This document shows positions 6,966-51,176 of a stretch of DNA of 64,000 bases, piece by piece. Location of the stretch: the NCBI GenBank assembly GCA_041394365.1, contig JAWKIM010000006.1, forward strand, positions 470,590-534,589, written 5' to 3'. The translations under genes were made by a program, and so were the position numbers. A model generated the notes under the pieces. That model searched no databases. It was not told the DNA's origin and saw only the letters and a program-made list of their open reading frames with translations. How positions within the stretch are numbered: the first letter of the stretch is position 1; every line of letters starts with the position of its first letter. The stretch comes from Acidimicrobiales bacterium (GTDB lineage Bacteria; Actinomycetota; Acidimicrobiia; Acidimicrobiales; CAIXPF01).

Positions 6966-7249
6966 CGCAGCCGGTTTCGCACCCAGCGCAGACGTCGAGA
7001 CTTTTAGGACTCAACCTGCACGTTGTTGGAACGGCATTAGCAGACGACGACCGGGGCAAACCCTAAAGATATGAGACTCTGACGACGAAGCCCTTGCACG
7101 TTACGTCGTGCATGCGGGAGGGCTGCAGTCGTGGTCCAGCAGGAAAGGAGCAATCCGTCAGCTGCGCACTGGGCATGGCGCACGGCCGCTTCTGCGGGGT
7201 CCTCTGGACATCCGTCCATGCGCTGGGGTGGCTGGGACCGCTCAGCCCT

Positions 7250-9370
7250 TGACGCAGGTGCTGTCGCTCCTCATGCCAGTGGCCGCCATCATTATGGCGC
7301 TTCGCATCTACCGGCCGCGTTCGGTGGCCGTGGTTGATGCTCGTGCTCAGCTTCGTCGTGTGGTTTATGGGTGGCGCCCTTCGCACGGTACTGGACGATG
7401 GGAGACCTGACGGCCGACAGGTCTCTCTTGCCGGATGCCGCGACGATCCCGGGTTATGTACTCGCCGCTGTCCTGTCTCGGGTTCAACAGGGCCCGAAGC
7501 CGCCGACATGATCTCGACGCCCTGCTCGACGGCGTTATCCCTGCACTCGTCGCTCTGCTCGGGGCGTGGGTGTTCCTGATCGGGCCAGCACTCGCAAAGG
7601 AACACGTTCCATTGCGAGTGAGGCTGGTCCTTGCCTGCTACCCGGCGATGTCGGTGCTCGTGTTGGCCATGGCAGCCCGAGTGGGCTTCTTGGGCAGTCA
7701 GCGCTCGGTTGTAGCCGTCAGGCTCTTTGTCGGAGCTGTTGTATGCGTTTTGGCTGGTGACGTGCTCTATATGGTCGCCGACGCGCATATCGCGGCAGTC
7801 CCTCTGCTGGTGATCGACGTCCCATATGTCGGGGCGTCAATCTGCGTGGGCCTCGCGGCATTGCACCCCACCATGCGCGAACTCACTGAACCTTCGCCGC
7901 TGGACGAATCCGCGCCGAGGCCGCTGGCGGATACTGCTCGTGTCGGCGATGCTTGGTCTGCCGGCGCTGGTTGCGGTCACGAGGCCGCGGGACGGGTGCA
8001 GACGGGCTGTTCATCGTCGGGCTCATCGGCGCGTTCACGGTCATGGGGACATGGCGGGTCTTCAGGGCATTGCGGGACCACGCGGCGGTTGAACGTCGCT
8101 TGCTGCACCAGGCAACCCATGACTCCGTGACGGGCCTTCCGAACCGGCTCTATGTAATGGAACACCTCGCCGCCGCCTTACGAACGCGCTTCGGAAGAGC
8201 GATCGGTGGCCGTGATCTTTGTCGATATTGATCGGTTCAAGCTCGTCAACGATACAGGCGGTCATAGCGTCGGCGACCAAGCCCTTCGGGCTGTTGCAAG
8301 ACGGATGTGGAAAACACCGCTCCTGGCGACATCGTGGCGCGTCGGTGGAGATGAGTTCGTCGTAGAGCACAGGTGCGTCAGCTTGACGCATGCGCATGCG
8401 CTCGCCGAGCGTCTGCACCAATCGTTTCAGACGCCGTTCACCATCGAGGAACAACAGATCTTCACCTCAGCCAGCCTGGGTGTGTCGTTCGCTCAGCACA
8501 ATGACGCTGACGCAACGGGGGATACGCTCCTACGCAATGCCGACATCGCAATGTATGAGGCGAAGCAGGCGGGCCGGAGATGGTGTCGCGGTCTTTGATG
8601 AGTCCATGAGCGACCGCGCCGCAGAAAGGGTCGCGCTCGAACAGGAGTTGCGAGTCGCACTTGTAGCGAGCGAGATCCACGCCAACTACCAACCGATCGT
8701 CGATTCCAGCGGTCAGAAGAGTTGTCGGATTCGAAGCACTCATGCGATGGCAGCATCCTCAGCGGACTTGTGCCGCCGGTGAAGTTCGTTCCCATTGCTG
8801 AAGAGAATGGTCTCATCGTTGAGTTCGGACTATTCATGCTGAATGAGGCTTGCAGAGAGTTGGTGCGCTGGCGCCGCCTACCCGGACACGATCGACTTAC
8901 CGTCTCCGTGAACCTGTCGCCGCCTCAACTTCGTGACAGTGATCTCGTGAGTGCAGTAGATGCCATCCTCGGTAGGCACGGACTGCCAGGTGATGCTCTA
9001 TGCCTTGAACTGACCGAATCGGTATTGATGGAGGATCCGGAACGAGCCGAGGAGATGCTAAGGAAGCTGCGAGCCCTGGGTGTAAGGTTATCGATCGACG
9101 ACTCCGGCACAGGCTATTCGTCGCTAGCCTATCTCAAACGATTTCCAGTGAATCAGGTCAAGATCGACAAGTCGTTTGTCGACGGGCTCGCCGATCCAAA
9201 CTCTTCTGAGGCATCGCTGGTGGCAGCGATCATCGCTATGGCCAGGGCACTCAATCTTACAACGGTCGCCGAGGGGGTCGAGTTGCCTGTCCAAGCCAAG
9301 GCTCTCGAGGAACTGGGGTGTGATAGATTCAGGGACTTTGTTTTTCGCGGCCGGTCATGGCACACCTGGT
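7250..9370 (+). pseudogene. Membrane-sensor GGDEF-EAL (diguanylate cyclase/phosphodiesterase) gene, broken by at least seven frameshifts. It lies in a low-GC (about 60%) island.
   Basis: A multi-TM N-terminal region is followed by a GGDEF domain (HDSVTGLPNR…, FVDIDRFKLVND, RVGGDEFVV) and an EAL domain (YQPIVD, LELTES, DDSGTGYSSLAYLKRF, KIDKSFV, AEGVE), distributed over at least six ORFs in three frames. GC content is visibly lower than in the flanks. Confidence 0.8.
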
Positions 9371-9441
9371 GCCGCCGACGATCGAACGCTCGAAGAAGCT
9401 TCGCGCATCACAACGAAGCCATCGGTGTTACCGAACCCCGC

Positions 9442-10254
9442 TTACCGCGCTGCGTCGTTCCTCGCCAGCGCCTCGATGATGTCGCCAGGCACGAGCCCGC
9501 GGACGGCAGGCTCGAAGTAGCTTGCCAGGAACATGACGCCCAGTGCAGCGTCGCCCGTATCTGCGAGGCGGCGGCGGAACGCAGGAACGTCCGTCCAAAC
9601 TGGGAGTGTTGCGGGGGAATCCAGATACTGGCGTGCTTCGAACCCGGCCAGCGCTGAGAACGGCCTGCCGCAGAGATGCTGGACCACTCTGAGCGCCTTG
9701 GTGTCCATGAGGGCAAGCGCGATTTCGGTGCCGACGGTGCCCGTCACGACGCCCATCGACCCGATGGTCGCTTGAACCAGGAAGGCCTTGCGGTACGCAG
9801 GTTCAACCGCAAGCGTGGCGCAGTCCCAGAGTCGTGTTGGGTCGGCCTTCAGGCCGGCCGCGTGAAGGGCGATCGGTCCCGGAACCCCCCAGATCCGAGC
9901 GAGATCGTCCATTGTCTTCCATCCGAGGCCACCGGGACCGATCAAGCGGGTGGCGGCAACAGGGATCAGCCGCTTGTGATCGATGATGCACGTGAAAAGA
10001 CTCGAAAACTCGTAGGGGGCATACTCGCTCGACATCACCGCTGGCCCATTGCCATACGCATCATCGAAGACGCGCCGCTCCACGGCCCGTGCGAGCTCAG
10101 CGCCATCGTCTTGTGAGGCGAAGACGTAGAGGCCGAAGGGCTGCTGCGGGCTGCCCTGACGCATCATGACCTCGTACGCGATGGACTTCAGATGCTCCTG
10201 CGTGAGGTCGATCCCGCCGGAGGGTTCGTCGGGGCGTAGCCTGTCGCTTCGCAT
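9442..10254 (-). CDS. Hypothetical protein of about 270 aa (possible GNAT/LuxI-fold acyltransferase; uncertain). It is operonic with the AdoMetDC-like gene.
   Basis: Intact ORF with its start 5 nt after the upstream stop. I recognise no confident motif; the real start is probably the internal Met MRSDRL… of the 327-aa ORF. Confidence 0.45.
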   Translation of the reverse strand: MRSDRLRPDEPSGGIDLTQEHLKSIAYEVMMRQGSPQQPFGLYVFASQDDGAELARAVERRVFDDAYGNGPAVMSSEYAPYEFSSLFTCIIDHKRLIPVAATRLIGPGGLGWKTMDDLARIWGVPGPIALHAAGLKADPTRLWDCATLAVEPAYRKAFLVQATIGSMGVVTGTVGTEIALALMDTKALRVVQHLCGRPFSALAGFEARQYLDSPATLPVWTDVPAFRRRLADTGDAALGVMFLASYFEPAVRGLVPGDIIEALARNDAAR

Positions 10255-10259
10255 GGCGG

Positions 10260-10634
10260 TCAGAACGGTCGCCCGACGATGGCCCGGGCGTCGAAGAACC
10301 GTGCGGTGTAGTCGATGGCGACATCGGCGTCGAACGCCTTGCAGGTGTACACGTCCACGCTGAAGAACAGCTGCGGCTGCTCCCACGCATAGAAGTGCGC
10401 ACCAGACGTCTCCCAGTGGATCCAACCGGCCCAGCCGAACCGATCGGACCGGTGGGTGACCGGACGGGTGAGGGTGACCATGTCGCAGACTCCCGATAGT
10501 CCGAGCAGGTACGACTCGATCGCTGCCGCGTCGATCGGCGCAGTCGGGATACCTTCGATAACGAGCCGTTGACGGAGAATGGTCGGCGCGAGGTCCACGA
10601 AAAGTGGTGAGTCGGCTGCTGTCTGCTGCATCAC
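10260..10634 (-). CDS. S-adenosylmethionine decarboxylase-like (SpeH/SpeD small class) family protein.
   Basis: The 124-aa ORF has a pattern GWAGWIHWETSGAHFYAWEQ…FFSVDVYTC, resembling the AdoMetDC processing and active region (ESH…HTWPE…AVDVFTC). Confidence 0.55.
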   Translation of the reverse strand: MMQQTAADSPLFVDLAPTILRQRLVIEGIPTAPIDAAAIESYLLGLSGVCDMVTLTRPVTHRSDRFGWAGWIHWETSGAHFYAWEQPQLFFSVDVYTCKAFDADVAIDYTARFFDARAIVGRPF

Positions 10635-10858
10635 GTCGTCACCCTAAACAGGGGTGATCGATCCGACGCCTTGATCCCCGTTAGTTATTCGGCCGAGCGA
10701 TGCAACTGTGTTCACCCAAGCGGACCATGTCATCGGCAATGGGCGAAACCCCTAGTCCGTCGCCACAGCCCCGAGGCGAGGGCAACGGTTCGCCGGGCGT
10801 TCGCCGTGCATCGGAAGGGGATCTGGTAGGCGGATGTCGCACCGGCGAGCGCGGATGG

Positions 10859-12063
10859 TCAGTGCGGGAGCTCGGGGGCTCGGTGCTCGGCACCGGCTTC
10901 GGCGGCGGCGCGGACGGTTCGGTAGGGGCGATCGAGAGCCAGGGCGGCAGCGGCGACGTCGTCGTGCTCGGCCTTGGCCCCCCAGGGGCCGTGCTTGACC
11001 CGAACGTCGTGGCCGTCCACCTGGACGGTCACCACCCGTCGAGGGGCCACCCAGCGGTCGACCAGCCGTTGGCGCACGCCCAGCGTGCCGGTCTCCCTCG
11101 CCAGCAACGAGCGCAGCTCCGCCGCCCGGCCCGGCTCGCACAGCACGCTGACCAACACCGCCGGTCGGGACTTCTTCATGGTGATCGGCGTGTGCCACAC
11201 ATCGAGTGCGCCCCGCTCCAGCAGCAGCTGCCCGACGTAGCCCAGCAGCTCACCGGTAACGTCGTCGAGGTTGGTCTCCAGCAGGCAGACGGTCTCGAGG
11301 TGGCCGGCCTCCGGCGCGGCGCCGGCGTGCGTCGCGGAACCGGCGGCGTCCACCACCACCACCACCACCTGCAGCAGGTTCGGGCGGCCCGGCGGTTGCG
11401 GGTGCCGGCGCCGTACCCAGTGGTACGAACGACGCCGTCGGGCACCGGGCCCCACCCCGTGGTGAGCGCCGCCACCAACGCAGCACCGGTGGGCGTGGTC
11501 AGCTCCATCGGCACGTCCACCCCCCGCACCGGCGCACCCTCGAGCAGGGCGGCCACCGCCGGCGCCGGGTTGGGCAGCACACCGTGCGCCGCCCGGATGG
11601 TGCCCACACCCACGGCGACGGGCCCGCAGCGGACCTCGTCGATGCCCAGGTCCTCGAGCGCCAGTGCCACGCCGACGGTGTCGATGATCGAATCGACCGC
11701 GCCCACCTCATGGAAGTGCACGTCCTGGGGGTCGACCCCGTGCAGGTGGCCCTCGATCTCGGCCAGCCGCCGGAACGTGGCCACCGCCCGCTCGGTGGCG
11801 CGGGCCGGCAGCCCGGCACCGGCGATGCGCTCGATGATGTCGGCCGCCCGGCGGTGGTGGTGCTGCTCCTCCACGCCCACCCGCACGTGCACGCCCCGCA
11901 GCCCGGCTCGGTCCACCACCGCCGACCCGAGCGACCAGCCGTCGTAGCCGAGGCGTCGGCAGCCCGCTTCCACCGCGGCGAGGTCGGCGCCGGCGTCGAG
12001 CAGGGCGCCGAGCGCCATGTCCCCGGCGATGCCGGCGAAGGGGTTGAACCAGGCGATCCGCAT
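10859..12063 (-). CDS. larC: LarC-like nickel-insertion protein (DUF111, nickel-pincer cofactor biosynthesis); one frameshift near 11390 beside a (CCA)6 run.
   Basis: N-terminus MRIAWFNPFAGIAGDMALGALLDAG. The C-terminal half (RPNLLQVV…ETNLDDVTGE…MKKSRP…) is in a second frame within the ORFs 11176–12063 and 10859–11455. Confidence 0.8.
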
Positions 12064-12900: not shown

Positions 12901-12998
12901 GGAACCGGCTCGACGGTCGGCGCCTGCAACCGGCTCGACGGCGGTGCCCGCAACCGGCTCGACGGCGGTGCCCGCAACCGGCTCGACGGCGGTGCCCG
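12901..12998. repeat. 24-bp tandem repeat (CAACCGGCTCGACGGCGGTGCCCG), three perfect copies plus one degenerate copy, in the divergent larB / NTF2-like intergenic region.
   Basis: Read directly from the sequence. It lies between the larB start (about 12867, minus strand) and the NTF2-like ATG (13018, plus strand). Confidence 0.75.
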
Positions 12999-19717: not shown

Positions 19718-20769
19718 GTGATCGTCGAATCGTTGCTACCGCTGGGCAAGCTCGACCCGGGCCTCCGCGAGCCGGAGACCCCGCTCGACATCAGGGACTT
19801 CGCCCGCTTGGCGGCGGTGGCGGAGGAGGTCGGCCTCGGCGCCGTGCTGGTGGAGGAGACGAAGGACGACCCGTTCCAGCTGCTCGCGCTGGGGGCGACC
19901 ACCACGTCGCGGATCCAGCTCGGCACGTCGGTGGCGATGGCCTTCCCCCGCAGCCCCACCGCCACCGCGATGTCGGCGTGGTCGCTGCAGAAGGTGTCCA
20001 ACGGCCGGTTCCTGCTGGGCCTGGGCACCCAGGTGCGGGCCCACATCGAGCGCCGGTACGGGCTGCCGTGGTCGGCGCCGGCGCCGTGGATCCGTGACTA
20101 CGTGGGGGCCATGCGGGCGGTGTGGGACTGCTGGCAGCACGGCACGCCGCTGCAGTTCGAGAGCGAGCACTACACGCTCAACCTGATGGTCCCGCTGTTC
20201 AACCCGGGCCCGATCGAGCACCCGCGCATCCCGGTGCACCTGGCCGCCATCGGCCCCAACATGTGCGCGGTGGCGGGGAGTTGGCCGATGGTGTGCGGCT
20301 GCACCCGGTGTGCTCCGCCAAGTTCATCGACACCGAGGTGCTGCCCGCTCTGGTCCGGGGCGCGGCGCGTACCGGTCGGGATGTCGACGAGGTCGAGATC
20401 TGCATGAAGCCGCTGATCGGCACGGCGCCGGACGCGGCGACGTTGGAGAAGGTGGTCCGCACCGTGCGGGCCCGGGTGGCGTTCTACCTGTCGACCCCGT
20501 CCTACCGGCGGGCGTTCGCGGTGCACGGGTGGGAGTCGATCGCCGAGCGGGCGTCGGTGCTGTCACGGGCGCAGCGGTGGGAGGAGCTGCCCGGGCTGGT
20601 GGACGACGAGCTGCTGCACACGATCGCCACCGTCGGCACCTACGACGAGATCGCGGGCAAGCTCAACGAGCGCTACGCCGGCCGGGTGCACCGCATCGAG
20701 TTCTCGATCCCGGTCAACAGCGAGCAGGACGCCGAGGCGTTCCGCTCGATCCTGGCGCAGCTGCGCTGA
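19718..20769 (+). CDS. LLM-class F420-dependent oxidoreductase (luciferase-like monooxygenase family); one frameshift at about 20285 (G-run).
   Basis: The ORFs 19718–20407 and 20122–20769 join as …AIGPNMCAVAGELADGVRLHPV… when one G is added. Luciferase-like TIM-barrel sequence throughout. Confidence 0.8.
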
Positions 20770-20850
20770 CCCACCCGGTCGGCGCTGGCCGACGTTCGGT
20801 TCGCCCGGCCGACGTTCGGTTCGGCCCGGCCGACCACCGGGCCAACCCTT

Positions 20851-21011
20851 CGCGGGCGATTCGATCTCGATTCGCCGTTCTCGACCGGCGTGGAGCAGCC
20901 GCCCACAGACGGTGGTCGTTGCTGACCCCACGGGTGTGCTGCCACGCGCCGGGTGCCCGATCTTTGTGTCTCACGACCGGTTCCGAATCGACGTCGAATC
21001 GAGCGCGACGG
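20851..21011. repeat. Palindromic MITE-like repeat, copy 1 (arms CGATTCGATCTCGATTCG … CGAATCGACGTCGAATCG).
   Basis: The inverted 18-bp arms, each containing TCGACGTCGA, are separated by about 110 bp. They lie between the convergent LLM and SDR genes, and homologous copies occur at about 27.1 kb and 50.8 kb. Confidence 0.8.
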
Positions 21012-21171
21012 TTTCCCGGGGACCCCCGGGTCTCGGCGCCCGATGCGGCCGAGCACCCGTCGGTCGGCTGCGCCACGGCGCCGCTACGGTGTTGGTGGTG
21101 CCGCAATCGATCGCCAACAGAGCCCCGGCCATCGGGCCGTTGCTAGCACAGCCCGGACGGCGCAGGCCGGG

Positions 21172-22107
21172 TCAGGCGGGCCGCAGGTCGATGCCGGTCA
21201 ACGCCCGGTAGCGCTCGAGGAACTCCGCAGTGGGCGCCGACCACAGCTCCTGCCAGGCGTCGTCGCCCAGCCGTTCCCGCAGCTCGATCATGGCCCGGCA
21301 GCCCTGGCCCACCGGACGTTGGCGCGCGCCGGGCGCGCCGCCGGTCACCGCCTCGCGCACCGCGGCGGCCACCTCGTCGGCGATCAACGACGGGTCCGAC
21401 GCCCGGGCGTGGTCGTAGCCGAGGGCGAAGCCCCAGTTCTTGGCGCTCTCCGGGTAGGGCGAGGTGCGCGGCGGCGGGGTGGTCTTCTGCTGGATCGGGG
21501 TGCGCACGGCACCCGGTTCGATGAGCACCACCCGCACGCCGAAGGGCCGGGCTTCCATGGCGAGCGCCTCGCTGGCCGCCTCGAGCGCGTACTTGGAGGC
21601 GCTGTAGGGCCCGAACATGGGCACGACCACCCGGCCGGCGATCGAGCTGATGTTGACGATGGTGCCGTGGCCCTGGGCGCGGAAGCGGGCCATCGCCGCC
21701 TGCATGCAGCGCACCGCGCCGAACAGGTTCGTCTCGAACAACGCCTTCCAACGGTCGATGCCGAACTCCTCGACCGAGCCCACCGGGCTGGTCCCGGCGT
21801 TGTTGACCAGCGCGTCGATCCGCTCGATGCCGTCGAAGGCGGCAGCCACCGAGGCGTCGTCGTCCACATCGAGCGCCACGATGCGCAGCGCCCTCGTCGA
21901 TCGAGCCGATCGTGCGGGACGCGGCCAGCAGGCCGGCGCCGTCGCGCTGCGGGTTGCGCATCCCCGCCACCACGTGCAGGCCGTCTTCGAGCAGGCGCAG
22001 CACGGTGGCGAAGCCGATCCGCTGGAGGTCCCGGTGACGAGCGCGGTGGCGGGTCGATCGGCGGCGGTGGGTGCTTCGGGCATGCGCGCATCCTCGCAGG
22101 AAGTCAT
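21172..22107 (-). CDS. SDR-family oxidoreductase; two frameshifts in the N-terminal region (about 21900 and about 21990).
   Basis: The cofactor motif TALVTGTSSGIG… is recovered across frames, and the catalytic YxxxK (YSASKYA) is present. Confidence 0.75.
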   Translation of the reverse strand: MTSCEDARMPEAPTAADRPATALVTGTSSGSASPPCCACSKTACTWWRGCATRSATAPACWPRPARSARSTRALRIVALDVDDDASVAAAFDGIERIDALVNNAGTSPVGSVEEFGIDRWKALFETNLFGAVRCMQAAMARFRAQGHGTIVNISSIAGRVVVPMFGPYSASKYALEAASEALAMEARPFGVRVVLIEPGAVRTPIQQKTTPPPRTSPYPESAKNWGFALGYDHARASDPSLIADEVAAAVREAVTGGAPGARQRPVGQGCRAMIELRERLGDDAWQELWSAPTAEFLERYRALTGIDLRPA

Positions 22108-22138
22108 CGCCGACGCTGTCGGCCCGGGCTGCGGCGGC

Positions 22139-23380
22139 TCAGCGGGCGGGTTGGCGGGCGCGGCGGTTGGTCAGGTTGCGCAGCGCCGGGCTGTCGGCGA
22201 AGCGCATGGCGATCGAGCCGGCCACCGCCAGCAGCATCACGTAGGTCACCGCCATCGGGCCGAGCTTCGGTTCGAGCTCGGCCGCCACGGCCAGCCCGGC
22301 GATCACCACCGAGAACTCGCCCCTGGCCACCAGTGACAGACCGGCTCGGCGCCGGCCGTGGATGGCGATGCCGTCGCGCCGGGCGGCCCACCAGCCGGTG
22401 GCGGTCTTGGTGGCGAACCCGACGACGGCCAGCACGGCGGCGGGCACCAGCACGGGGGTGAGCGTCCTGGGGTCCACCTGCAGCCCGAAGAACACGAAGA
22501 ACAGCCCGCTGAAGAGATCCCGGATGGGCTGCAGCAGCTCGCGACCGCGGTCGGCGACCTGATCGGACAGGGCGACACCCACCAGGAACGCGGCCACCGC
22601 GGCGGAGACCTGGACGCGCTCGGCCAGCCCGCCGATCAGCAGGGCGAGGCCGAGGATGCCGAGCAGCAGCAGCTCGGGGGAGCCGGTGTCGAGCAACCGG
22701 TTCACGTGACGGCCGTAGCGGGTGGCCACCAGCAGGGCGGCCACCACGGCGGCCACGGCGGTGGCGATGGCCACGGCCGCGTCCGCAGGCGCGGCCCCCA
22801 CCAGCAGCACGCCCAGCAGCGGCAGGTACACGGCCATGGCCAGATCCTCGAGCACGAGGACGGTGAGCACCGTGGGGGTCTCGCGGTTGCCGATGCGGTC
22901 GAGCTCGAGCAGCTGGCGGGCGATGATGCCGGAGGACGAGATGTAGGTGACCCCGGCCAGCACCGCGGCCGCCACCGGCCCCCAGCCCAACAGCAGGCCG
23001 GCGAGGAAGCCGGGGGCGCCGTTGGCGACGAGGTCCACGATGCCCGCCGGCCAGCCGGTGCGCAGGCCGTGGTGCAGCTCGGCCGGGGTGTACTCGAGGC
23101 CCAGCAGCAACAGCAGCAGCACGACACCGATGTCGGCGGCGATGCGGATGAACTCGCTGCTGGCGTCGAGGGGGATGGCGCTGCCCTCGCCCATGAGCAG
23201 CCCGGCCACGAGGTAGAGGGGGATGGTGGGCAGGCTGAGCGCCCGGGCCGTGCGCCCGAGCACGGCCAGCACGACGAGCACGCCGCCCAGCTCGAGCAGG
23301 GCGGCGCCGGTGGTGGACGCGGCGAGCAACGCCGCCGGCGGGCTCACGTGGCGGCGGTGGCCCGTGGCGGCCGGCCGAGC
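22139..23380 (-). CDS. Cation:proton antiporter (CPA2/Kef-type) membrane subunit.
   Basis: Polytopic membrane ORF (…LGLEYTP…, many TM helices). The likely GTG start is near 23340; the annotated 480-aa ORF over-extends. Confidence 0.8.
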   Translation of the reverse strand, partial: ARPAATGHRRHVSPPAALLAASTTGAALLELGGVLVVLAVLGRTARALSLPTIPLYLVAGLLMGEGSAIPLDASSEFIRIAADIGVVLLLLLLGLEYTPAELHHGLRTGWPAGIVDLVANGAPGFLAGLLLGWGPVAAAVLAGVTYISSSGIIARQLLELDRIGNRETPTVLTVLVLEDLAMAVYLPLLGVLLVGAAPADAAVAIATAVAAVVAALLVATRYGRHVNRLLDTGSPELLLLGILGLALLIGGLAERVQVSAAVAAFLVGVALSDQVADRGRELLQPIRDLFSGLFFVFFGLQVDPRTLTPVLVPAAVLAVVGFATKTATGWWAARRDGIAIHGRRRAGLSLVARGEFSVVIAGLAVAAELEPKLGPMAVTYVMLLAVAGSIAMRFADSPALRNLTNRRARQPAR

Positions 23381-23387
23381 GGCGCGC

Positions 23388-23868
23388 TCATCGGGTGAGC
23401 AGCTCGGCGGCGCGCTGCACGCTCGCCGCCGCGCCGACCACGAGCACCACGTCGTGGGCCTGCAGCTCGAACTCCGGCCCGGGCCCGGGGATGGACTGTC
23501 CCTCCCGGAGCACGGCCACCACCGAGGCCCCGGTGTCGGTGCGTATGCGGCCGTCGCCGATCGAACGACCGGTGAGGCCACCGTGGTCGGGCATGGTCAA
23601 CCACTCGATGGCGAGGCCCTCCACCTCGTGGCGGAGATCGCTGAGCCGTTCGGTGAGCTTGGTGCCGCCCAGCAACTCCACCACCACGGCCGCCTCCTCG
23701 CCGTTGAGCTCGACGCTCGCCCGGCAGGCGTCGGGGTCTTCGCGGTCGTAGACCACCAGGTCCCGCCGACGGTCGCGGCGGGCGACGATGGCCAGGTGTT
23801 CGCCCGCCTCGGTGGTGAACTCGTAGCGCGAGCCAACGCCCGGCAGCGGTGTCTCGAAGACCTCCATG
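23388..23868 (-). CDS. TrkA-C-domain antiporter regulatory subunit (KhtT-like).
   Basis: The protein MEVFETPLPGVGSRYEFTTEAGEHLAIV… sits immediately upstream of the antiporter gene, the classic khtT–khtU arrangement. Confidence 0.75.
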
Positions 23869-23983
23869 CCTGCACCTTTCCGTCGTGTCGGGATCCGGAC
23901 TCTGCCACAGCGGGTGGGTGCGGAGGGTCGAGGCCGGTGCGGCTTCGACGGACGCGCTCGCGACGGTTCCGCGGGTGGCTCCC

Positions 23984-24364
23984 TCACCGTCGCCGGGCGG
24001 CTCGGGTGCCGAGCACGCCACCGATGGTCACGCACCCGAGCACGGCCCCGGCGGCCACCAGCGAGGCGGTGGCCGTCACGTCCTCGTCGGGGCGTAGCGC
24101 CAGCATGGCGAGCCCGGCCAGCGCGGCTATCCCGCCACCGGCGGCGATCAGCGGCCCGCCCGCCCGGTGCGCTGCATACCAGGCGGTATCGTCACGCATG
24201 GTCGAGGGGAGCCTGATGCCGGCCCAGTGCTGGCGGGGCAGCCGGCCCTTGGCGCCGGCGAGGCCGATGGCGGCGACGACCGATCCCGAGACCAGCCACA
24301 GCAACCCCATCGCCCATGCCACCTGCGGCAGGTTAGGGCCCGGTGTGGCTGCGGTGCCGGTCAC
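23984..24364 (-). CDS. Small membrane protein (SdpI/YhfL-like).
   Basis: 126-aa ORF with 3–4 TM segments and good GC3 bias. Confidence 0.45.
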   Translation of the reverse strand: MTGTAATPGPNLPQVAWAMGLLWLVSGSVVAAIGLAGAKGRLPRQHWAGIRLPSTMRDDTAWYAAHRAGGPLIAAGGGIAALAGLAMLALRPDEDVTATASLVAAGAVLGCVTIGGVLGTRAARRR

Positions 24365-24422
24365 CGGCCCGGCCCTCGCCGTACCGACCGGTACGGATCC
24401 GCGTCGGTGGCGCGGCGTCGGC

Positions 24423-24734
24423 TCAACCGGGTTGCTCGGGCGGCTCGCCGATGTTGCGCCGCAGGATCTCGATCAGCGCATCGGTCAAGGCTTCGTCGTG
24501 GATGGCGATGCGCTGTAGGAGCGACCACATAGCTACATGATGGGCCACGTTCGCCTCGCCCACCTCCTGCACCGCCGCCCGCAGGTGCTCGAGCTCCACT
24601 TCGCTGCCGACGGTCAGATCCGGCGTGAGGGAGGCGATGGCCGAGGAGAAGCGCCCAGCGGCAGCGGCCACGTCCACCCAGGCGTCGACGGCTTCGTCGA
24701 AACGTTGACGGAACGACGCCGAGGAGGTGGGCAC
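24423..24734 (-). CDS. Hypothetical protein (103 aa).
   Basis: Intact ORF with strong GC3 skew; I recognise no domain. Confidence 0.4.
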   Translation of the reverse strand: MPTSSASFRQRFDEAVDAWVDVAAAAGRFSSAIASLTPDLTVGSEVELEHLRAAVQEVGEANVAHHVAMWSLLQRIAIHDEALTDALIEILRRNIGEPPEQPG

Positions 24735-24943
24735 GCTCTGAGGGTAGTGCCGAACTGGAATCTTGAGAGACCCGCTCGGTTTTGCAACCCCGCCGTCTGG
24801 ACGTTTCGTCCAAAGGGCTCGTGGCGTTGGGACGTGCGACCCTTCCCGTCAGCCGATCGACCCCACGCGAATTGGCCGAAACGGCCGCCGGGAACGGGCG
24901 AAGTCCACTCGTGTTCGCTCGTCTGCGGAGCTAGACAGGGGCC

Positions 24944-25543
24944 GTGAACGCCTCGCCTGTCGCGCCGGGTGGTCGCAGGCACCTGCTGGGCATGGTCTGT
25001 TCTGCCCTGGGGGCGTGCGCGGCCACGACCGACGAAACCCTCGCCGTGTGCTGGTCGGTCGGGCAGGAACCGGCGGAGCGGCCGGTGGCCAGCCTCGTCG
25101 CCATGACGCCGTCCGAGGATCGCCCGGTTCTCGACGAGCTCGTGGGCCGCATGCAGACCGGGGCCGTGCACGTGCACCGAGCGGCGCCCTCGGGAGCCAC
25201 GTACTTCGCCTACGACGGCCGGTCCACCGACTTCGACCGCATCCTGTGGTACTGGCAGCCGGCGGCGGCGCGCGGCTCGCCGGCGAGCGCGCCGGGGGCC
25301 GTGGCCGCCGCGGCGGACAGCGAGCTGCTGGCATCGCTGACCGACCGCGAGCGCGCCGTGATCACCGCGATCCTGGCCGGCTCCAGGGTCAGCACCATCG
25401 CCCGGAGCCTCTTCCTCAGCCCCAGCACGGTCCGCAGCCACCTGAGCGCGGCGTTCAAGAAGCTCCAGGTCGGGTCGCAGGCGGAGTTGATCGAGCGATT
25501 CGGGGGCGCTGCTCGGTCGTTGGAGGGCCGAGCGAGCAGCTGA
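24944..25543 (+). CDS. LuxR-family transcriptional regulator (C-terminal HTH).
   Basis: The LuxR HTH is LTDRERAVITAILAGSRVSTIARSLFLSPSTVRSHLSAAFKKLQV. Confidence 0.75.
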   Translation: MNASPVAPGGRRHLLGMVCSALGACAATTDETLAVCWSVGQEPAERPVASLVAMTPSEDRPVLDELVGRMQTGAVHVHRAAPSGATYFAYDGRSTDFDRILWYWQPAAARGSPASAPGAVAAAADSELLASLTDRERAVITAILAGSRVSTIARSLFLSPSTVRSHLSAAFKKLQVGSQAELIERFGGAARSLEGRASS

Positions 25544-25852
25544 CCCGCGCAGGGCTCCGGAGGTGCCGCCAGCACGAGCGTACCCTTGGGTACGGTCGGG
25601 TCGACGGGCGCGAGCACACCGGCGGGTACGGCCCCGGCCACGGCGACCACCCGATCGCCGGCGACCACCGTCGGGCGCTGCCAAGCCGAGCCGGGGACGG
25701 CCATCCGGTCGCTCCGGGACGCCGGGGTACCGCGAGGTATGACGCAGCGGTACGGTTCCGGCGGCCGAGGATCTTGGCCGTTTCGTGGAAAGTTGCACGA
25801 TCGCGGGTCCCGGCCGTACCCGGTCGGCGCGGCGATGCCTACGCTCGGTCCG

Positions 25853-26089
25853 TGGAGCGGCTGTGTCGGCGTGACGATTGCGACGGGCGTTGTGGCGAGC
25901 GGACGATCGAGGCGTTCACCCACCAGGTGCGGGCGCGGGCGGAGCGTGCGCCGGGCGTCGAAGGGCTGGTGCCGCTGACCGCCACTTGCATCCGGTGCCT
26001 GCACATGTGGCCGCAGGTGGTGAGCCGGGAGGAGATCGACAGCGGTCGGGCACTCGATCGGCTGTGCGATCGCTGCGCTGCCGGCTGAC
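25853..26089 (+). CDS. Candidate small Cys-rich protein (about 78 aa, CxxxxCxxxC … CxxC … CxxC).
   Basis: GTG-start ORF with high GC3, between the two inverted LuxR-HTH copies. It has no recognisable family and is low confidence. Confidence 0.3.
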
Positions 26090-26113
26090 GGTGACGGGCG
26101 CTCGACGACGGGC

Positions 26114-26440
26114 TCAGGTCTCGGGCGGCGGGTCGAGCCGGTAGCGCTCGACGAGCTCCGCCTGGGAGCGCACACCGAGCTTCTTGAAGGCCGCGCTCAG
26201 GTGGCTGCGCACGGTGCTCTCGCTCAGAACAGGCTGCGGCTGATCGTCTTGACCCGCCAACCGGCGAGCACGGGCCCACGACCGATCGCTCGCGGTCCGA
26301 GGTGGGCGAGCCGGGCTGCGGCTTCGGGCGTCGGCGCAGCGATGGCCCGAGGGGTCCGCAGCGGGAGCCTCTGCGTCGCCGGCGGGCTCGGCGGGCGGAG
26401 GTTGCCAGTACCAGACGATCTTGTTGAGCTCGGTGCCCCC
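26114..26440 (-). pseudogene. Truncated, frameshifted paralogue of the LuxR regulator (inverted partial duplication).
   Basis: …KIVWYWQ… and LSESTVRSHLSAAFKKLGVRSQAELVERY are about 80% identical at the nucleotide level to 25242–25543 on the other strand. The middle segment (TSDRERSVVG…) is in another frame. Confidence 0.6.
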
Positions 26441-26449
26441 GGAGGATCG

Positions 26450-28010
26450 CTGAGGCCCGGGTGACACTGACGTCGAGCAGGTTTCGCACGGTCGCGTTCG
26501 TGGCGCGGCCGTGTTCGGCCACAGGTGCGACGACCTTGCGGTCGATGTCGTAACCAGTGCGTCGGTGATAGCGCACGGCGGAGCCGAGTTGGGGTGAGGA
26601 CGGCGCTGCGAAGCCGATAGTCGAGCTGCGCGCGGTTGGCGCTCTGGCGCGTCGGCTCGAGCAGGTCGAACGGGGCGGCCGCCATCCGTGCGAGGACCGC
26701 CTGTGCGTCGGCGACCGGTCGCTGTGCGATCGGCGAGGGCCACGGCGTCGATCGGTCGGCGTTGCCAAAGCTCGCGCAGCGAGCAGGACGTCGGTCACGT
26801 CGGTGGCCGTTCAGCCCGTAGTCCCGTTGGACCAGCGCATTCGCGACCGCCTCGCGGACCGCGAGCTCCGGGAAGTCCGCGACGGTGATCTGCTGTCCTG
26901 AGCTCGGATCCACCGAGCCAGCCGTCGCACACCCCTGGACCGGGGCCCGCGCCCTTCTCGGTGCATGCCGGTCCGCCGGACTCCCGGGCCCGAACGCTCC
27001 GGCCGGCAGGCACCTGGCACCGTGCGCCTGCTGGGGCCGGCGCTCGCAGCCGGCCGGCAATCTGGGCCGTCCTTCAGCGGCGATTCGACGTCGATTCGAC
27101 GGCATCGACCGGCCGAGTTCGGCCAGCCACCGGTGGTGGCCTCACCCTCCGGTCGGGCTGCTCAGCCTCACCGATGGTGGCCGGACTTCGTGTCTCACGA
27201 CCAATTCCGAATCGACGTCGAATCGAGCGCGAAGGAGCCCGCCCATACCCCTCGGCATGTCGCCCACCCAGCCGCCAGAGCACGCCGGCGGTGAGCTGGA
27301 TCGAGAAGTCCGGCTCGGCCGACGATCTGACCCGGTGGACGTACACGAGTCGTGCGTCGTCACCCTGCGAGTCGGTCAGCAACAGCGCGCCGGCCCGGCG
27401 GAGCCGACCCTGGTCATCGAGCAGCTTCAGATTGCGCAGGAGCTCCGCCCCCGGCAGATCGGCGATCTCTCGGCCGGCCTCGGGCATGGCGCGAAGCCGA
27501 CGGCGCACGATGTCGATGGCAGCTGCGGAGACGTCGTCGAAACCGAGGTCCGTTGGCTCGGCCGTGATGTCCAGCCCTTGCCGGCTGGTGTAGAGCCGGT
27601 GCACCTCGACGGGACTCAGCGCCTTGCAGCCGGTGCCCATCCGCATCGTCACCCGTCCGGCGACCGAATAGACCTGCTGCCCCCGCGGGACGTCGAAGAC
27701 CATCAGGCGGACGTCGGCTGCCTCCGGCGGTCGGTACTCGGCGATGTCCACGACCAGGTTCGGGTTCGTGCGCTCGCAGATGCCCTTTCGCACGTCCATC
27801 ACGGACGCTGTTACGCCCCTGAGCGCGCCGATGCCACCGGGACGATCGGCGACACCGACGATCAGGTGCCCGCCATCTGCGTTGGCGAAGCACATGGCCG
27901 CCTCAGCGAGATCGGTCAGGGTTGCCGAGGTCGCGGGCGGTCTGCTTGAAGTCGAGTGTGGCCGACTCGAGGCTGTGCGCCGGCGAGCCCGTCGCGACGG
28001 CGTGCACGGC
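26450..28010 (-). pseudogene. AlbA_2 / HATPase_c_4-type putative transcriptional regulator, interrupted by palindromic repeat copy 2 and by frameshifts.
   Basis: The N-terminus MEVSDHIKL…ESATLDFKQ…LTDLAEAAMCFANADGGHLIVGVAD is an AlbA_2 domain. Downstream pieces are QQITVADFPELAVREAVANALVQRDY (HATPase_c_4) and GRATNATVRNLLDVSVTRASAILRG (C-terminal wHTH), in different frames. The repeat arms are translated inside the 346-aa ORF. Confidence 0.55.
27075..27234. repeat. Palindromic MITE-like repeat, copy 2, inserted within the AlbA_2 regulator gene.
   Basis: Arms CGATTCGACGTCGATTCG (27081–27098) and CGAATCGACGTCGAATCG (27208–27225). Confidence 0.8.
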
Positions 28011-28413
28011 CAGCTTGATGTGGTCCGATACTTCCATCGAGTTTTCCTGCACCCTCCACTCCCCAGATGGCAGGAAAACTCGGAGAAACCCCCTGCCGGG
28101 GGCGGCCGCGCCACCCTCGGCGGACGACGCTCGGCGCGGGAGTCTCTGGCTTGTCCCTCACAGGCCTATCGGCTGAGAGGGCGGGAGTAACCCCGGGAGT
28201 AACGAAGGCCGTCAGCTGCGACAGATCGACGACGCCCTTCGACTCGCCCTGGAACTCGACTGAGCCTGCGGTGCACATCGCACTCGAAACCGCCACCTCT
28301 ACCCGGCGTGGCGGAGGCGAGCGTCGGCGGGCTCCGGGTGTACCTGCCGTCGAGCACGATCCCAATCAGGCCCGGGTGCAGAACCGCAAGCGGCGCAACA
28401 ACCCCGCGATATC

Positions 28414-28640
28414 ATGATCGTTGTGACTGATATCCTGATCCGGGACGTGCCCGATGACGTCGTCGCCGCGCTCGGCGCGAACGCCCAACGCGCCGGTTTG
28501 GCGCGGGCAGAGTACCTCCGGCGGGTGCTGGCCGAGCAGCAAGGACCTCGGTCACCCGCGACCAACTCGATCGTTTCGCCGAGCGCACCGCCGATCTGGG
28601 CGATCCCGAGGTCATGGCCGCCGCGTGGCGGTGACCGGTT
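28414..28640 (+). pseudogene. RHH (FitA/VapB-like) antitoxin, frameshifted.
   Basis: MIVVTDILIRDVPDDVVAALGANAQRAGLARAEYLRRVLAE is the ribbon-helix-helix antitoxin pattern; the C-terminal part is lost to a frame change. Confidence 0.5.
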
Positions 28641-29024
28641 GGCTGATCGACAAGTCGGCGCTCACCCGTCTTGCGATGGCGAGTGGATAGTGGCTGTCGC
28701 GCATCCAGCGGCCTGGTGAGGATCTCGACCGTGACGTTGCTCGAGATCGGCTTCGACCCGCAACGGCATCGATCACCGCGCCACGCTGGGCGAGCCGCCG
28801 GTGTCGTCGATGCCCGTCGAGCACCTGGACCCCGCGATCGAAGCCCGTGCGGTCGAGCTTCAGATGTTGCTCGCCGATCAAGGTCAGCACCGCGCCCCGT
28901 CGATCCCCGATCTGCTCATCGCCGCAACTGCGGAAGCGGCGCGCTCGTGGTGCTGCACGTCGACAAGGACTTCGACCTCATCGCAGCGATCACCAACCAA
29001 CCGATCGAACGGCTCGACGTCTGA
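28640..29024 (+). pseudogene. VapC-type PIN-domain toxin, at least three frameshifts.
   Basis: [37 protein letters not shown] and [23 protein letters not shown] are in three different frames. Confidence 0.55.
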
Positions 29025-29159
29025 ACTGGGCGGGCACGGCCGCTCGACCTGACGTCCGTCGGAGGTCGCGGGTGGGTCAGCGACGGCACGCTGGCGGCGC
29101 GGAAGTTCCCTTGGACCTGGCGTTCGATCCGATCACAGTGGATGCGGCCCAGATGGGTA

Positions 29160-29480
29160 GGGTGCCGTGCGGGCGGCCTGCGGCCCGGTAGCTACGGCCG
29201 TGGCGATGGTGGCCGACGGGATGACCACGGCCGAGATCCTGGCCGAGCACCCCCGACCTGGAGGCCGAGGACGTGGCGCAATGCCTTCGCTATGCGGCAC
29301 CCGCCGTGGAGCGTGAGCTGCCGCCACGGCTGCCCGGAGTTCCTGCTCGATCAGAACCTCTCGCCGCTCGTCTCCGGCGTGTTGCAGGCGGCCGGTCATG
29401 ACGGTCCACGTGCGTGACCTCGACCTCGCCGCCGAAGGGCGCTGCGTGACGATCCTCGACGGATCTTTCCGAAGCTGAGT
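29160..29480 (+). pseudogene. Remnant of a DUF433 / DUF5615 gene pair (frameshifted, 3'-truncated).
   Basis: GMTTAEILAEHPDLEAEDVAQCLRYAA (DUF433-like) followed by LPEFLLDQNLSPLVSGVLQAAGHD (DUF5615-like N-terminus). Compare the intact pair at 47234–47847. Confidence 0.4.
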
Positions 29481-30541: not shown

Positions 30542-30632
30542 GCTGGCGGAACGGGGGGGATTCGAACCCCCGGGGCCTTTCGGCCCGGCCGCTTTCAAGG
30601 CGGCTGCATTCGTCCGCTCTGCCACCGTTCCG
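30542..30632 (-). tRNA. tRNA-Ser (anticodon TGA) with a long variable arm. The 3' end lies adjacent to the integrase remnant.
   Basis: Manual fold: acceptor GGCGGAA/TTCCGCC, anticodon stem GCCGC/GCGGC with loop CTTGAAA, long extra arm, T-loop GGGGGTTCGAATCCCCC. One extra C in the T-stem/acceptor junction makes the exact ends uncertain. Confidence 0.7.
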
Positions 30633-30714
30633 CCGACCATTCTCGCGCGGCGGCCGCCCGGTGCGGCGTGACCTTTGGCGACGGTGTGACGGGACCCGCG
30701 GTCGAGCGGGCCCG

Positions 30715-43806: not shown

Positions 43807-43880
43807 GCGCTCGTAGCTCAATTGGATAGAGCATCTGACTACGGATCAGAAGGTTGGGGGTTCGAGTCCCTCCGAGCGCG
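43807..43880 (+). tRNA. tRNA-Arg (anticodon ACG).
   Basis: Manual fold: acceptor GCGCTCG/CGAGCGC, D-arm GCTCAATTGGATAGAGC, anticodon stem TCTGA/TCAGA with loop CTACGGA, T-arm GGGGGTTCGAGTCCCTC. Confidence 0.9.
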
Positions 43881-46838: not shown

Positions 46839-47237
46839 ATGGCGATCGAGCTCCTCGAACTCGTTCCGTTGCGTGATGAGCTGGAGGCCTTGCCGCGCGA
46901 TCTGAAGGCGGCGCAGACGGAGATCAACCGGCTGCAGGGTCGGCTGGGTCCTGCTGCGCCGTACGGACACGTTTCTGGGGGCAGCCCGAGTTCGGCGACC
47001 ATGATCGGTGCGGCTGTCGACGACTACTCCTACCCCACCACGATCGCCAGGCACAGCGGTCGGTCCCCTCGCAACGAGCTCTGCTATGCGGCCCACGGCG
47101 AGGCTTCGTACCTGCTCGCTGATGGCGGTCGGTCAACGGACTGGGTGCCGAACCTACTGGCCGGTTTCCGTGACGATGGCCGACCGGCGGGAGTGGTCGA
47201 CGGGGAGCCGGGTGGTGGGGCACACTGGGTGGCGTGA
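46839..47237 (+). CDS. Hypothetical coiled-coil protein. Its N-terminus is paralogous to the N-terminus of the PrimPol-helicase at 48290.
   Basis: ELLELVPLRDELEALPRDLKAAQTEINRLQGRLG compared with EQHELARLREELEASRRDLQAAQAEIDRLRGLLG. Confidence 0.4.
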   Translation: MAIELLELVPLRDELEALPRDLKAAQTEINRLQGRLGPAAPYGHVSGGSPSSATMIGAAVDDYSYPTTIARHSGRSPRNELCYAAHGEASYLLADGGRSTDWVPNLLAGFRDDGRPAGVVDGEPGGGAHWVA

Positions 47238-48184: not shown

Positions 48185-48289
48185 TGAGGACGACCAGGTG
48201 CAAGGCCCTTTCCTTCGGGGGAGGGCCTTCGTCGTTGACGGCCTCAACGGCGATGCCGGGTTGGTGCCGGTGGGTGGGATCATGGCCGG

Positions 48290-50716: not shown

Positions 50717-50802
50717 TCGGAGCCCGCCCGCGCGACCGATCGTGTCGCGGGCTGGGAGATGCGGTCGGCCGATCGACCACGGGCGACTCCGGTGGGGGCT
50801 CT

Positions 50803-50964
50803 CCGGCGTCCTTCGCGGTCGATTCGACGTCGATTCGCCTTGGTCGACCGGGGCGGGCGAGTCGGCCCCGTTCCGTGGCCGCCCGTGACCCCGGGGGCCC
50901 GGAGCGTCGCCTGACGTGCTGTGATGTTGTGTGTGGCGACCAATTCCGAATCGAGCTCGAATCG
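50803..50964. repeat. Palindromic MITE-like repeat, copy 3, between the PrimPol-helicase and the HelD-like genes.
   Basis: Arms CGATTCGACGTCGATTCG (50810–50827) and CGAATCGAGCTCGAATCG (50937–50954). Confidence 0.8.
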
Positions 50965-51176
50965 AGCGCGACGGATTTCCCACACACCCTGCCGAACCAG
51001 GGCACAGGACCGAGGAGACCAGCCCGTCTGCAGGGACCGAGCCGGCCAGCCCGTCGGCGGAGACCGAGCCGGCGCACCACGCGGCTCGCAGCGACGACCC
51101 GGGCCGGGCGGACCGCGCCCCGCGGCCTAGATTCGCGACGGTCCCGGCGCCCGGTCGGCGACCACCCCGAGGTGTG

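Follow-up and report, generated by a model that had tools for sequence, protein, structure and literature searches.

A dispersed palindromic repeat built on a class-wide 18-bp motif of Acidimicrobiia

A dispersed palindromic element was found in a 64-kb stretch of DNA from an Acidimicrobiales bacterium (contig JAWKIM010000006.1). This whole stretch is called the window, and coordinates are positions in it unless another locus is named. The element is present as three copies on the + strand, named A, B and C by order, and the 18-bp motif that forms their inverted arms recurs across the class Acidimicrobiia. We observed a repeat family, a class-wide motif, covariation in the hairpins, a bias towards the 3' ends of genes, lineage-specific amplification, a fixed geometry and one gene interruption. 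The hallmarks of a miniature inverted-repeat transposable element (MITE), namely a target-site duplication (TSD), terminal inverted repeats (TIRs) and a transposase, are lacking within the copies and loci examined. The best reading, which we hold with about as much belief as doubt, is that of a new family of extragenic palindromic repeats on the class-wide motif, resembling the repetitive extragenic palindromes (REPs) and the bacterial interspersed mosaic elements (BIMEs). We infer its possible function and means of spread below.

Copies in the window and the paired form

The 165-bp cores, as delimited by alignment, were found at 20847-21011 (copy A; nhmmer E=7e-39), 27071-27235 (copy B; profile search E=2e-46) and 50810-50974 (copy C; profile search E=3e-34). 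When up to three mismatches were allowed, the 18-mer gave 10 strand-hits in the window, all within the six arms, against 0.08 expected by chance from 100 dinucleotide shuffles. Besides the arms, neither avoidance nor excess of GANTC or CGAWTCG was found in the window, which has a G+C content of 71.5%. Four of the six arms are exact: both arms of copy B (left 27081-27098, CGATTCGACGTCGATTCG; right 27208-27225, CGAATCGACGTCGAATCG), the right arm of copy A (20984-21001, CGAATCGACGTCGAATCG) and the left arm of copy C (50820-50837). Each of the exceptions has two central bases changed, CG to TC in the left arm of copy A (20857-20874, CGATTCGATCTCGATTCG) and CG to GC in the right arm of copy C (50947-50964, CGAATCGAGCTCGAATCG), the latter being still self-palindromic but mismatched to the left arm of its own copy.

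Alignment and repeat finding revealed that the inverted similarity reaches 10 nt past each arm (CCTTCGCGGG + arm ... arm + AGCGCGACGG), so that the arms are about 28 bp long and the conserved core is 165 bp. The arm-to-arm spacing is exactly 127 nt in A, B and C, and the 109-nt interior carries no indels. Two sub-terminal motifs occur in all three window copies, TCGACCGG at 6 nt past the left arm and GTGTnTnnCGACCnnTTC before the right arm. A preliminary description of this DNA had proposed three copies of about 160-170 bp with inverted 18-bp arms and shared sub-terminal motifs; the excess of arm matches confirms the copies, and the motifs are indeed common to all of them.

A scan of metagenomes for the composite pattern gave 10 contigs, each with one complete element in unrelated flanks. 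A profile built from all copies matched at full length only in the source species and in those 10 contigs, and in other Acidimicrobiia it matched the arm only. Copy B and five of the metagenome copies form a sub-family (B-type) with 75-89% identity, whose homology spans about 230-290 bp and fades gradually into unrelated flanks; three B-type left junctions read TGA. The arm spacing is exactly 127 nt in 14 of 14 copies, representing eight independent sequence types. This spacing is kept despite only 34-59% identity between types in the central 59 nt, whereas just outside the arms the same copies do carry indels.

The interior was studied in alignment A7, which contains 13 copies. The invariant blocks are CGACC and TCGAC, the latter 6 nt past the left arm (columns 37-41; A 20881-20885, B 27105-27109, C 50844-50848, all on the + strand, as are the palindromes that follow). 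Three mini-palindromes occupy fixed positions. The first, CACC-N3-GGTG (columns 60-70; A 20904-20914, B 27128-27138, C 50867-50877), has C60, C62, G68 and G70 invariant in the 13 copies and 90% of its cells paired. The second has the same form (columns 101-111; A 20945-20955, B 27169-27179, C 50908-50918). The third reads TCGTG-N3-CACGA in copy B and CGTG-N3-CACG as the family form (columns 120-132; A 20964-20976, B 27188-27200, C 50927-50939), and it overlaps a conserved GTGTC..CGACC block. Together the three are 89.9% paired, with a covariation score of 0.187 against 0.138 in shuffled alignments (reached by 4 of 500); interior covariation outside them is not supported. From the left arm through both CACC palindromes to the right arm, successive dyad centres are separated by 43, 41 and 43 nt.

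Folded as RNA, the whole elements reach -85 kcal/mol (z=-3.96) for A, -94.6 (z=-6.85) for B and -97.1 (z=-5.02) for C. The composite arms do not fold alone (z of about 0) and pair with each other instead, the left arm being of the T..T type and the right arm of the A..A type in all copies. Two opposed palindromes of the REP type thus lie in one mosaic unit after stop codons, as in a BIME. However, the perfect self-palindrome CGATTCGACGTCGAATCG is the sequence of 4 of 12 left arms. In these, as in the CG to GC change of the C right arm, the local symmetry is kept and the long stem is broken, and such changes count against pure arm-to-arm pairing. The orientation of the upstream gene is shared by A, C, a fourth copy described below, and the copies at L106, L107, L108 and L110, but not by B, L103 and L112. 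No conserved peptide was found in the element, and its open frames arise only from the high G+C content.

The arm motif across Acidimicrobiia

The exact 18-mer was searched in one genome per GTDB species. The preliminary description had allowed for arms found only in the three places of the window. Their confinement to these is decisively contradicted, as the 18-mer occurs at no fewer than 102 genome loci. Of the 102 loci listed, 94 belong to Acidimicrobiia (Iamiaceae, Microthrixaceae, Acidimicrobiaceae, Aquihabitans sp. G128 and many metagenome-assembled genomes, MAGs), and the remaining eight lie in other phyla, a number in line with chance. Among the matches listed, three MAGs hold at least about 28, 17 and 12 loci. 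The density is low, the six arms being all the sites of the window and most 8-kb loci holding one, and most loci outside the source lineage carry a single motif.

Secondary sites define the true unit as CGAWTCG-N4-CGAWTCG, that is, two 7-bp palindromes that are 11 bp, or one helical turn, apart. Since the 7-mers are both palindromic and spaced in this way, the preliminary description saw a direct repeat and a palindrome together. The W position is free (TT or AA at 10 sites, AT at 5, TA at 1), and the N4 centre is variable (ACGT, GTGT, ATAT, CTGT, GCGC). Genome-specific extended sub-families surround the common core, which is REP-type behaviour. In MAG BP_73 (loci L002-L101), for example, the 18-mer is the apex of a repeat unit of about 70 bp, ...TTTCGgc.GCGTACGCAG[18]CTGCg.ac.gc.gCCGAATTCGACG..., and an A+T-rich block (AGAAAAT...TGA) is often seen about 40 nt upstream of it. 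Tandem arrays of two to three exact 18-mers, 11-53 nt apart, were also noted in several Acidimicrobiia MAGs (L015 3974-4044; L036 1559-1606; L096 5086-5136; L100 4130-4193; L023 6692-6754), the one in L015 containing 2.6 copies of the 11-mer CGATTCGACGT. Paired motifs in other genomes lie 30-107 nt apart and share no helical phase.

In most Acidimicrobiia the single motif caps a strong hairpin located 30-130 nt past stop codons. Pairing was examined for the 10 nt on either side of the motif, which differ from site to site. Complementary positions averaged 5.1 of 10 against 2.9 of 10 in controls, and at least 7 of 10 were paired at 26% of the sites against 1% of controls. In an ungapped alignment of 100 sites the flank covariation score was 0.236, compared with 0.144±0.009 in shuffles, none of 500 of which reached it, and slid registers gave 0.15 at most. 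Example folds of single motifs range from -22 to -36 kcal/mol (z -3.7 to -10.6). Together with its flanks the 18-mer has the form of a REP stem-loop, an imperfect palindrome of about 20-40 nt.

A crude, GC3-based gene finder placed 25 of the Acidimicrobiia sites between convergent genes, 6 between divergent genes, 31 between tandem genes and 27 inside predicted genes, about 70% being intergenic. The binomial estimate for 25 convergent against 6 divergent sites is p of about 9e-4. Between tandem genes, 21 of the 31 sites are closer to the upstream stop, with a median distance of 80-107 nt from it. Of the intragenic sites, 8 of 27 are close to a probably over-extended start, and some intragenic matches are coding coincidence, as the 18-mer encodes RFDVDS. 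At L069, positions 4332 and 4959, the motif is coding sequence (RFDVDS and GFDVDS) in an AMP-binding enzyme gene, from which it follows that not all matches are hairpin elements. The 130 neighbouring proteins match 183 unrelated Pfam families, and no family is enriched beside the motif. The sequence between motif pairs was inspected at two loci, where it proved to be an AMP-binding-enzyme gene in which both motifs are coding (FDVDS) and a 202-aa hydrophobic open reading frame (ORF); no RAYT-sized gene (RAYT, REP-associated tyrosine transposase) was found between the pairs at either.

Gene context and mobility of the copies

Copy B lies inside a decayed AlbA_2/HATPase_c_4 gene of the - strand, whose N-terminal part was located at 27278-28037 and whose frameshifted C-terminal remains were located at 26298-26901. 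An exhaustive search with the AlbA_2 fragment gave intact homologues of about 570-600 aa. The closest, P0124 (592 aa, 58% identical, with AlbA_2 and HATPase_c_4 domains), aligns by tblastn to 27916-27278 with residues 42-255 and to 26901-26806 with residues 278-309, after which the pseudogene is frameshifted and the equivalent of residues 310-440 is missing. The gap between the breakpoints amounts to 22-23 residues in intact relatives and to 376-379 nt in the window. Similarity to other B-type copies stops at 26898 (L107) and 27277 (L110). As the gene breakpoints coincide with these limits of inter-copy homology, a 379-nt unit (26899-27277, + strand) with copy B at its centre has replaced 66 nt (22 codons) of the gene. 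The ends of this unit are not inverted repeats and share only the 4-nt GAGC, in place of a TSD, and the arms sit 52-182 nt inside them. This shows that copy B arrived by insertion or recombination and not through a cut-and-paste DDE transposase. The TGA at 26899-26901 was considered as the stop of a + strand gene and rejected, as it lies opposite a Ser codon of AlbA_2 on the other strand. GenBank annotates two products of 273 aa and 268 aa on the pseudogene; the 273-aa product (P0001) runs through copy B to 27074 and therefore its C-terminus is likely spurious.

The region between copy B and the tRNA gene at 30547 looks like a variable island. A 90-nt inverted repeat (25415-25504 and 26138-26227; 78% complementary, arms 633 nt apart) lies in the decayed region beside the copy. 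A FitA-like RHH antitoxin and PIN toxin pair with a DUF5615 gene lies beside the pseudogene at about 28600-29300 (L113 8866-9473). Three GenBank MAG contigs from sister strains are 97-99% identical to the window, and strain indels relative to L113-L115 occur at 26438/26439 (448 bp, L113 11462-11910, partly 75% similar to window 25088-25221) and at 29457 (200 bp, L113 8220-8420).

A fourth composite copy is present in the sister strains and absent from the window. It is carried in a 523-bp insert (L113 6469-6991) that occurs in all three sister contigs and has 21-nt imperfect TIRs, GGCTCTCCGCGATCAAGCGGG and GGCTCTTCGCGTTCGGGCGGG (ends GGCTCTCCGCGATC... and GGCTCTTCGCGTTC..., 17 of 21 matching), flanked by the 8-bp TSD GCCAAAGG. 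By sister-strain comparison, the empty site with a single GCCAAAGG is at 30672-30679 (- strand), about 40 nt from the tRNA gene (30547-30631, - strand). The ends of the insert resemble those of the ISL3 family. The composite fills only about positions 107-272 of the insert, with composite-like sequence at about 108-293 and the remainder unique, and with the composite internal and the ends ISL3-like it is cargo there. For the same reason, we rejected this strain-polymorphic insert as a case of transposition of the composite itself.

The proposal of a non-autonomous transposable element, made in the preliminary description, stands in part. The element is dispersed and non-coding, lies in unrelated contexts and includes one gene-interrupting unit, but a TSD, TIRs at its ends and an autonomous partner were not found. 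The target-site duplications that had been suggested as a check were not found at the copy borders, no consistent duplication being present at the core borders of the 13 copies examined. Copy B, the sole copy with mappable ends, has no TIRs at its true ends, and no ISL3-like TIRs were found near A, B or C, where scores are at background. An autonomous partner with the same ends was not found in the window, 120 loci, plasmids, phages or viral contigs. The arms, which might be taken for TIRs, are not specific to the element, as their motif occurs mostly singly, at hairpin tips, across Acidimicrobiia.

Copy A separates the 3' ends of two convergent genes, for a luciferase-like monooxygenase (+ strand) and for a short-chain dehydrogenase (SDR; - strand), and lies 78 nt past the stop of the former and 161 nt past that of the latter. 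No empty orthologous site was found for it; the SDR homologues of other species reach no more than 63% identity over their full length, are non-syntenic and lack the motif. Copy C follows a TOTE AEP-helicase gene, 94 nt past its stop, and precedes a UvrD-like helicase gene. The placement given earlier for the three copies, in 3' or intergenic positions or in a decaying gene, is therefore borne out by each of them.

The region 48239-52826 around copy C is a likely defence island, in which the TOTE gene encodes a TOTE-type AEP primase joined to a ResIII/DEAD helicase (Pfam AEP-TOTE, E=4e-71) and is followed, after copy C, by the UvrD-like helicase gene. A tRNA gene at 43807-43880 was noted along with it. 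A 102-nt direct repeat (46847-46948 and 48310-48411; 74% identical) has its second copy in the 5' part of the TOTE gene, suggesting a duplicated gene fragment upstream. Elsewhere in the window, three tandem 24-bp units (CGGCGGTGCCCGCAACCGGCTCGA...) lie at 12915-12997 in an apparent coding region. The stretch 7000-11000 is low in G+C (59-66%, the rest having about 72%), contains few confident gene calls of the GC3 type (G+C at third codon positions), and may be horizontally acquired.

Interpretation and comparison with known systems

The preliminary description had called the family undescribed, which agrees with our searches. Rfam gave no match on the element at the gathering threshold or at E up to 1-5, only tRNAs reaching the gathering score. 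Plasmid and phage BLAST gave no match to the element, and the scan of viral contigs gave one chance-like match without paired flanks. In the literature, the exact sequence had no match among 8 million papers, and searches by half-site and by topic found no relevant description. Of the three options named at the outset, namely a transposable element, a REP/BIME-like structured element and a transcription-factor binding cassette, the REP/BIME-like one is the best. The operator cassette is disfavoured because of the 3'-end position (25 convergent against 6 divergent sites), the unrelated neighbours (183 Pfam families) and the covariation of the flanking stems.

In the source lineage, the two motifs and their 10-nt outer flanks are the halves of one stem of about 28 bp, which closes a fixed-length interior of 109 nt with three small palindromes. 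As a REP/BIME-like family, the element might work as follows. As single-stranded RNA, in the 3' untranslated region of the upstream gene, or as single-stranded DNA, the element would fold into a long hairpin. The folded element could be a hairpin for transcript ending or stability, or it could be recognised by a conserved host factor. It may have multiplied without TSD, the candidates being a single-strand enzyme of the HUH/RAYT type or illegitimate recombination.

Several observations weigh against this interpretation. The 127-nt invariance is not demanded by a hairpin model and is a better fit to a DNA-protein architecture. For single motifs, the T..T form is unbiased relative to the direction of the upstream gene (18:13), and G·T against A·C wobbles, at 12:7, do not favour one strand. 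No T-run was seen after the hairpins, as would be expected of the U-tract of an intrinsic terminator, and 20500-27600 holds no promoter-like or terminator-consensus site. Neither a transposase nor Y1_Tnp/RAYT is among the 25 most frequent families of the 130 neighbour proteins. A universal 5' tetranucleotide of the GTAG type was not found; GTAG or GTAC stands upstream only in certain genome-specific sub-families (VAR_78, BP_73) and is absent from Aquihabitans and the window copies. The exact 18-mer is kept across families, unlike typical species-specific REPs, and the gene calls in other genomes come from a crude, GC3-based finder.

The strict spacing is the main argument for a module that is bound as duplex DNA, which we consider unlikely, though the strongest of the alternatives. 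In such a module, a conserved Acidimicrobiia protein would recognise pairs of CGAWTCG, and the composite would be a nucleoprotein site of fixed geometry, in which four dyads, spaced by about 42 bp, share a helical face; its role would be architectural, gyrase/BIME-like or termination-associated, without a folded single strand. The spacing of 11 bp, one helical turn, between the 7-mers agrees with this, as do the dyad centres 43, 41 and 43 nt apart and the 127-bp spacing fixed in 14 copies of eight types whose centres are 34-59% identical and whose flanks carry indels. The self-palindromic left arms (4 of 12) and C right arm put local symmetry above arm pairing, and the retention of the exact 18-mer across families implies a factor acting in trans. 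However, the flanks of single sites covary to keep their pairing, which a duplex-binding dimer would not need, and paired motifs elsewhere (30-107 bp apart) have no common helical phase. The N4 centre and the W positions are free, the neighbour genes are functionally unrelated and no candidate protein was found. There is likewise a small chance that the motif is the recognition site of a conserved Acidimicrobiia protein, whether HUH/RAYT-like, architectural or a termination factor, with the composite as its fixed-geometry nucleoprotein module. If true, this would make it a kind of chromosomal 3'-end element undescribed in any bacterium, going beyond another REP family.

A classical MITE, that is, a non-autonomous DNA transposon with TIRs of about 28 bp bound by a transposase encoded elsewhere, is improbable. 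The long inverted arms, the small size without an ORF, the unrelated contexts of the copies, the 75-89% identity of the B-type sub-family and the unit with copy B inserted into a gene would all suit it. It is opposed by the missing TSD at the core borders in 13 copies, by the B-unit ends, which lie outside the arms and share only GAGC without being inverted repeats, and by the gradual fading of inter-copy homology. Moreover, the arm motif is mostly single, no transposase is among the most frequent families of the 130 neighbours and no plasmid, phage or viral source was found. A true MITE of the same species has 21-nt TIRs and an 8-bp TSD with the composite internal to it, and TIRs of this kind were not found around A, B and C. 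Also improbable, in our view, is an RNA of about 165 nt, be it the product of a structured non-coding RNA gene or a cis-regulatory RNA, in which a long closing stem would hold three small hairpins and the length would be set by their three-dimensional fold. It draws on the strictly conserved length, on the consensus of a closing stem and three fixed hairpins (89.9% paired, covariation 0.187 against 0.138, 4 of 500) and on the orientation of most copies like the upstream gene. The internal hairpins are short, at 4-5 bp, and show few compensatory changes (5 cells), however, and the arms are mostly lone hairpins in other genomes. Copies lie in pseudogenes and inside a MITE, no Rfam match appeared even at permissive E-values, no promoter-like site was seen and no wobble asymmetry favours a strand.

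Acidimicrobiia are among the abundant bacteria of soil, freshwater, marine and wastewater communities, yet their genetics is poorly studied, and we found no description of a repeat family in them. A class-wide 18-bp motif at 3' ends would be a handle for its binding protein or enzyme. The motif could improve the annotation of operons and terminators in MAGs of high G+C, as the 273-aa AlbA_2 product that crosses copy B illustrates, and it marks likely hotspots of assembly breaks and recombination. With its fixed 127-nt spacing, the composite offers an unusually clean constraint that could discriminate models of RNA fold from models of DNA architecture.

Among known systems, the REPs of Enterobacteria and Pseudomonas are repetitive extragenic palindromes, and BIMEs are paired REPs. 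Like these, the Acidimicrobiia elements are short imperfect extragenic palindromes, mostly just past genes, with paired inverted copies as a mosaic unit, sub-families of extended flanks particular to each genome, no TSD and no coding capacity. They differ in that no RAYT gene or GTAG-type signature was found for the motif, in that the 18-mer is identical across several families of the class, REPs being usually species-specific, and in a core that joins two 7-bp palindromes in tandem. The paired form, with an invariant 109-nt interior that has mini-palindromes of its own, also departs from the short linkers of BIMEs. With MITEs the family shares the small size, the lack of coding sequence, the dispersal and the inverted-repeat ends, whereas the ISL3-type MITE of 523 bp has 21-nt TIRs (GGCTCTYCGCG...) and an 8-bp GCCAAAGG duplication, neither of which is present at the composite borders.

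The palindrome-associated transposable elements (PATEs), IS200-IS605 derivatives and other relics of HUH (Y1) enzymes are single-strand transposons. They resemble the composite in having hairpins near their ends with conserved mismatches, no terminal TIRs and no TSD, and possibly in insertion beside a short fixed sequence (the three B-type left junctions reading TGA), a comparison that concerns one mapped junction pair. Unlike in these elements, no TnpA/TnpB gene was seen, and the mismatches of the one-strand hairpins differ (T·T against A·A). In mycobacteria, 'I-shaped' hairpin terminators without a U-tract and conserved terminator motifs have been reported. The Acidimicrobiia motif is similar in forming a G+C-rich hairpin that lacks a T-run, is commonest between convergent genes of a high-GC actinobacterium and has an apex common to many loci. 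The composite is far larger than a terminator, however, and tandem arrays and, rarely, gene interiors contain the motif as well. DNA uptake sequences (DUS) of Neisseria and uptake signal sequences (USS) of Pasteurellaceae form inverted pairs in terminators, DUS occurring about once per kb. A short family-wide sequence, often a palindrome after genes, is a common feature, whereas the Acidimicrobiia motif is of low density and is itself palindromic. By the searches made, the family is a new member of the extragenic-palindrome kind, and its unusual traits are an exact 18-mer kept across families of the class and an invariant 127-nt architecture.

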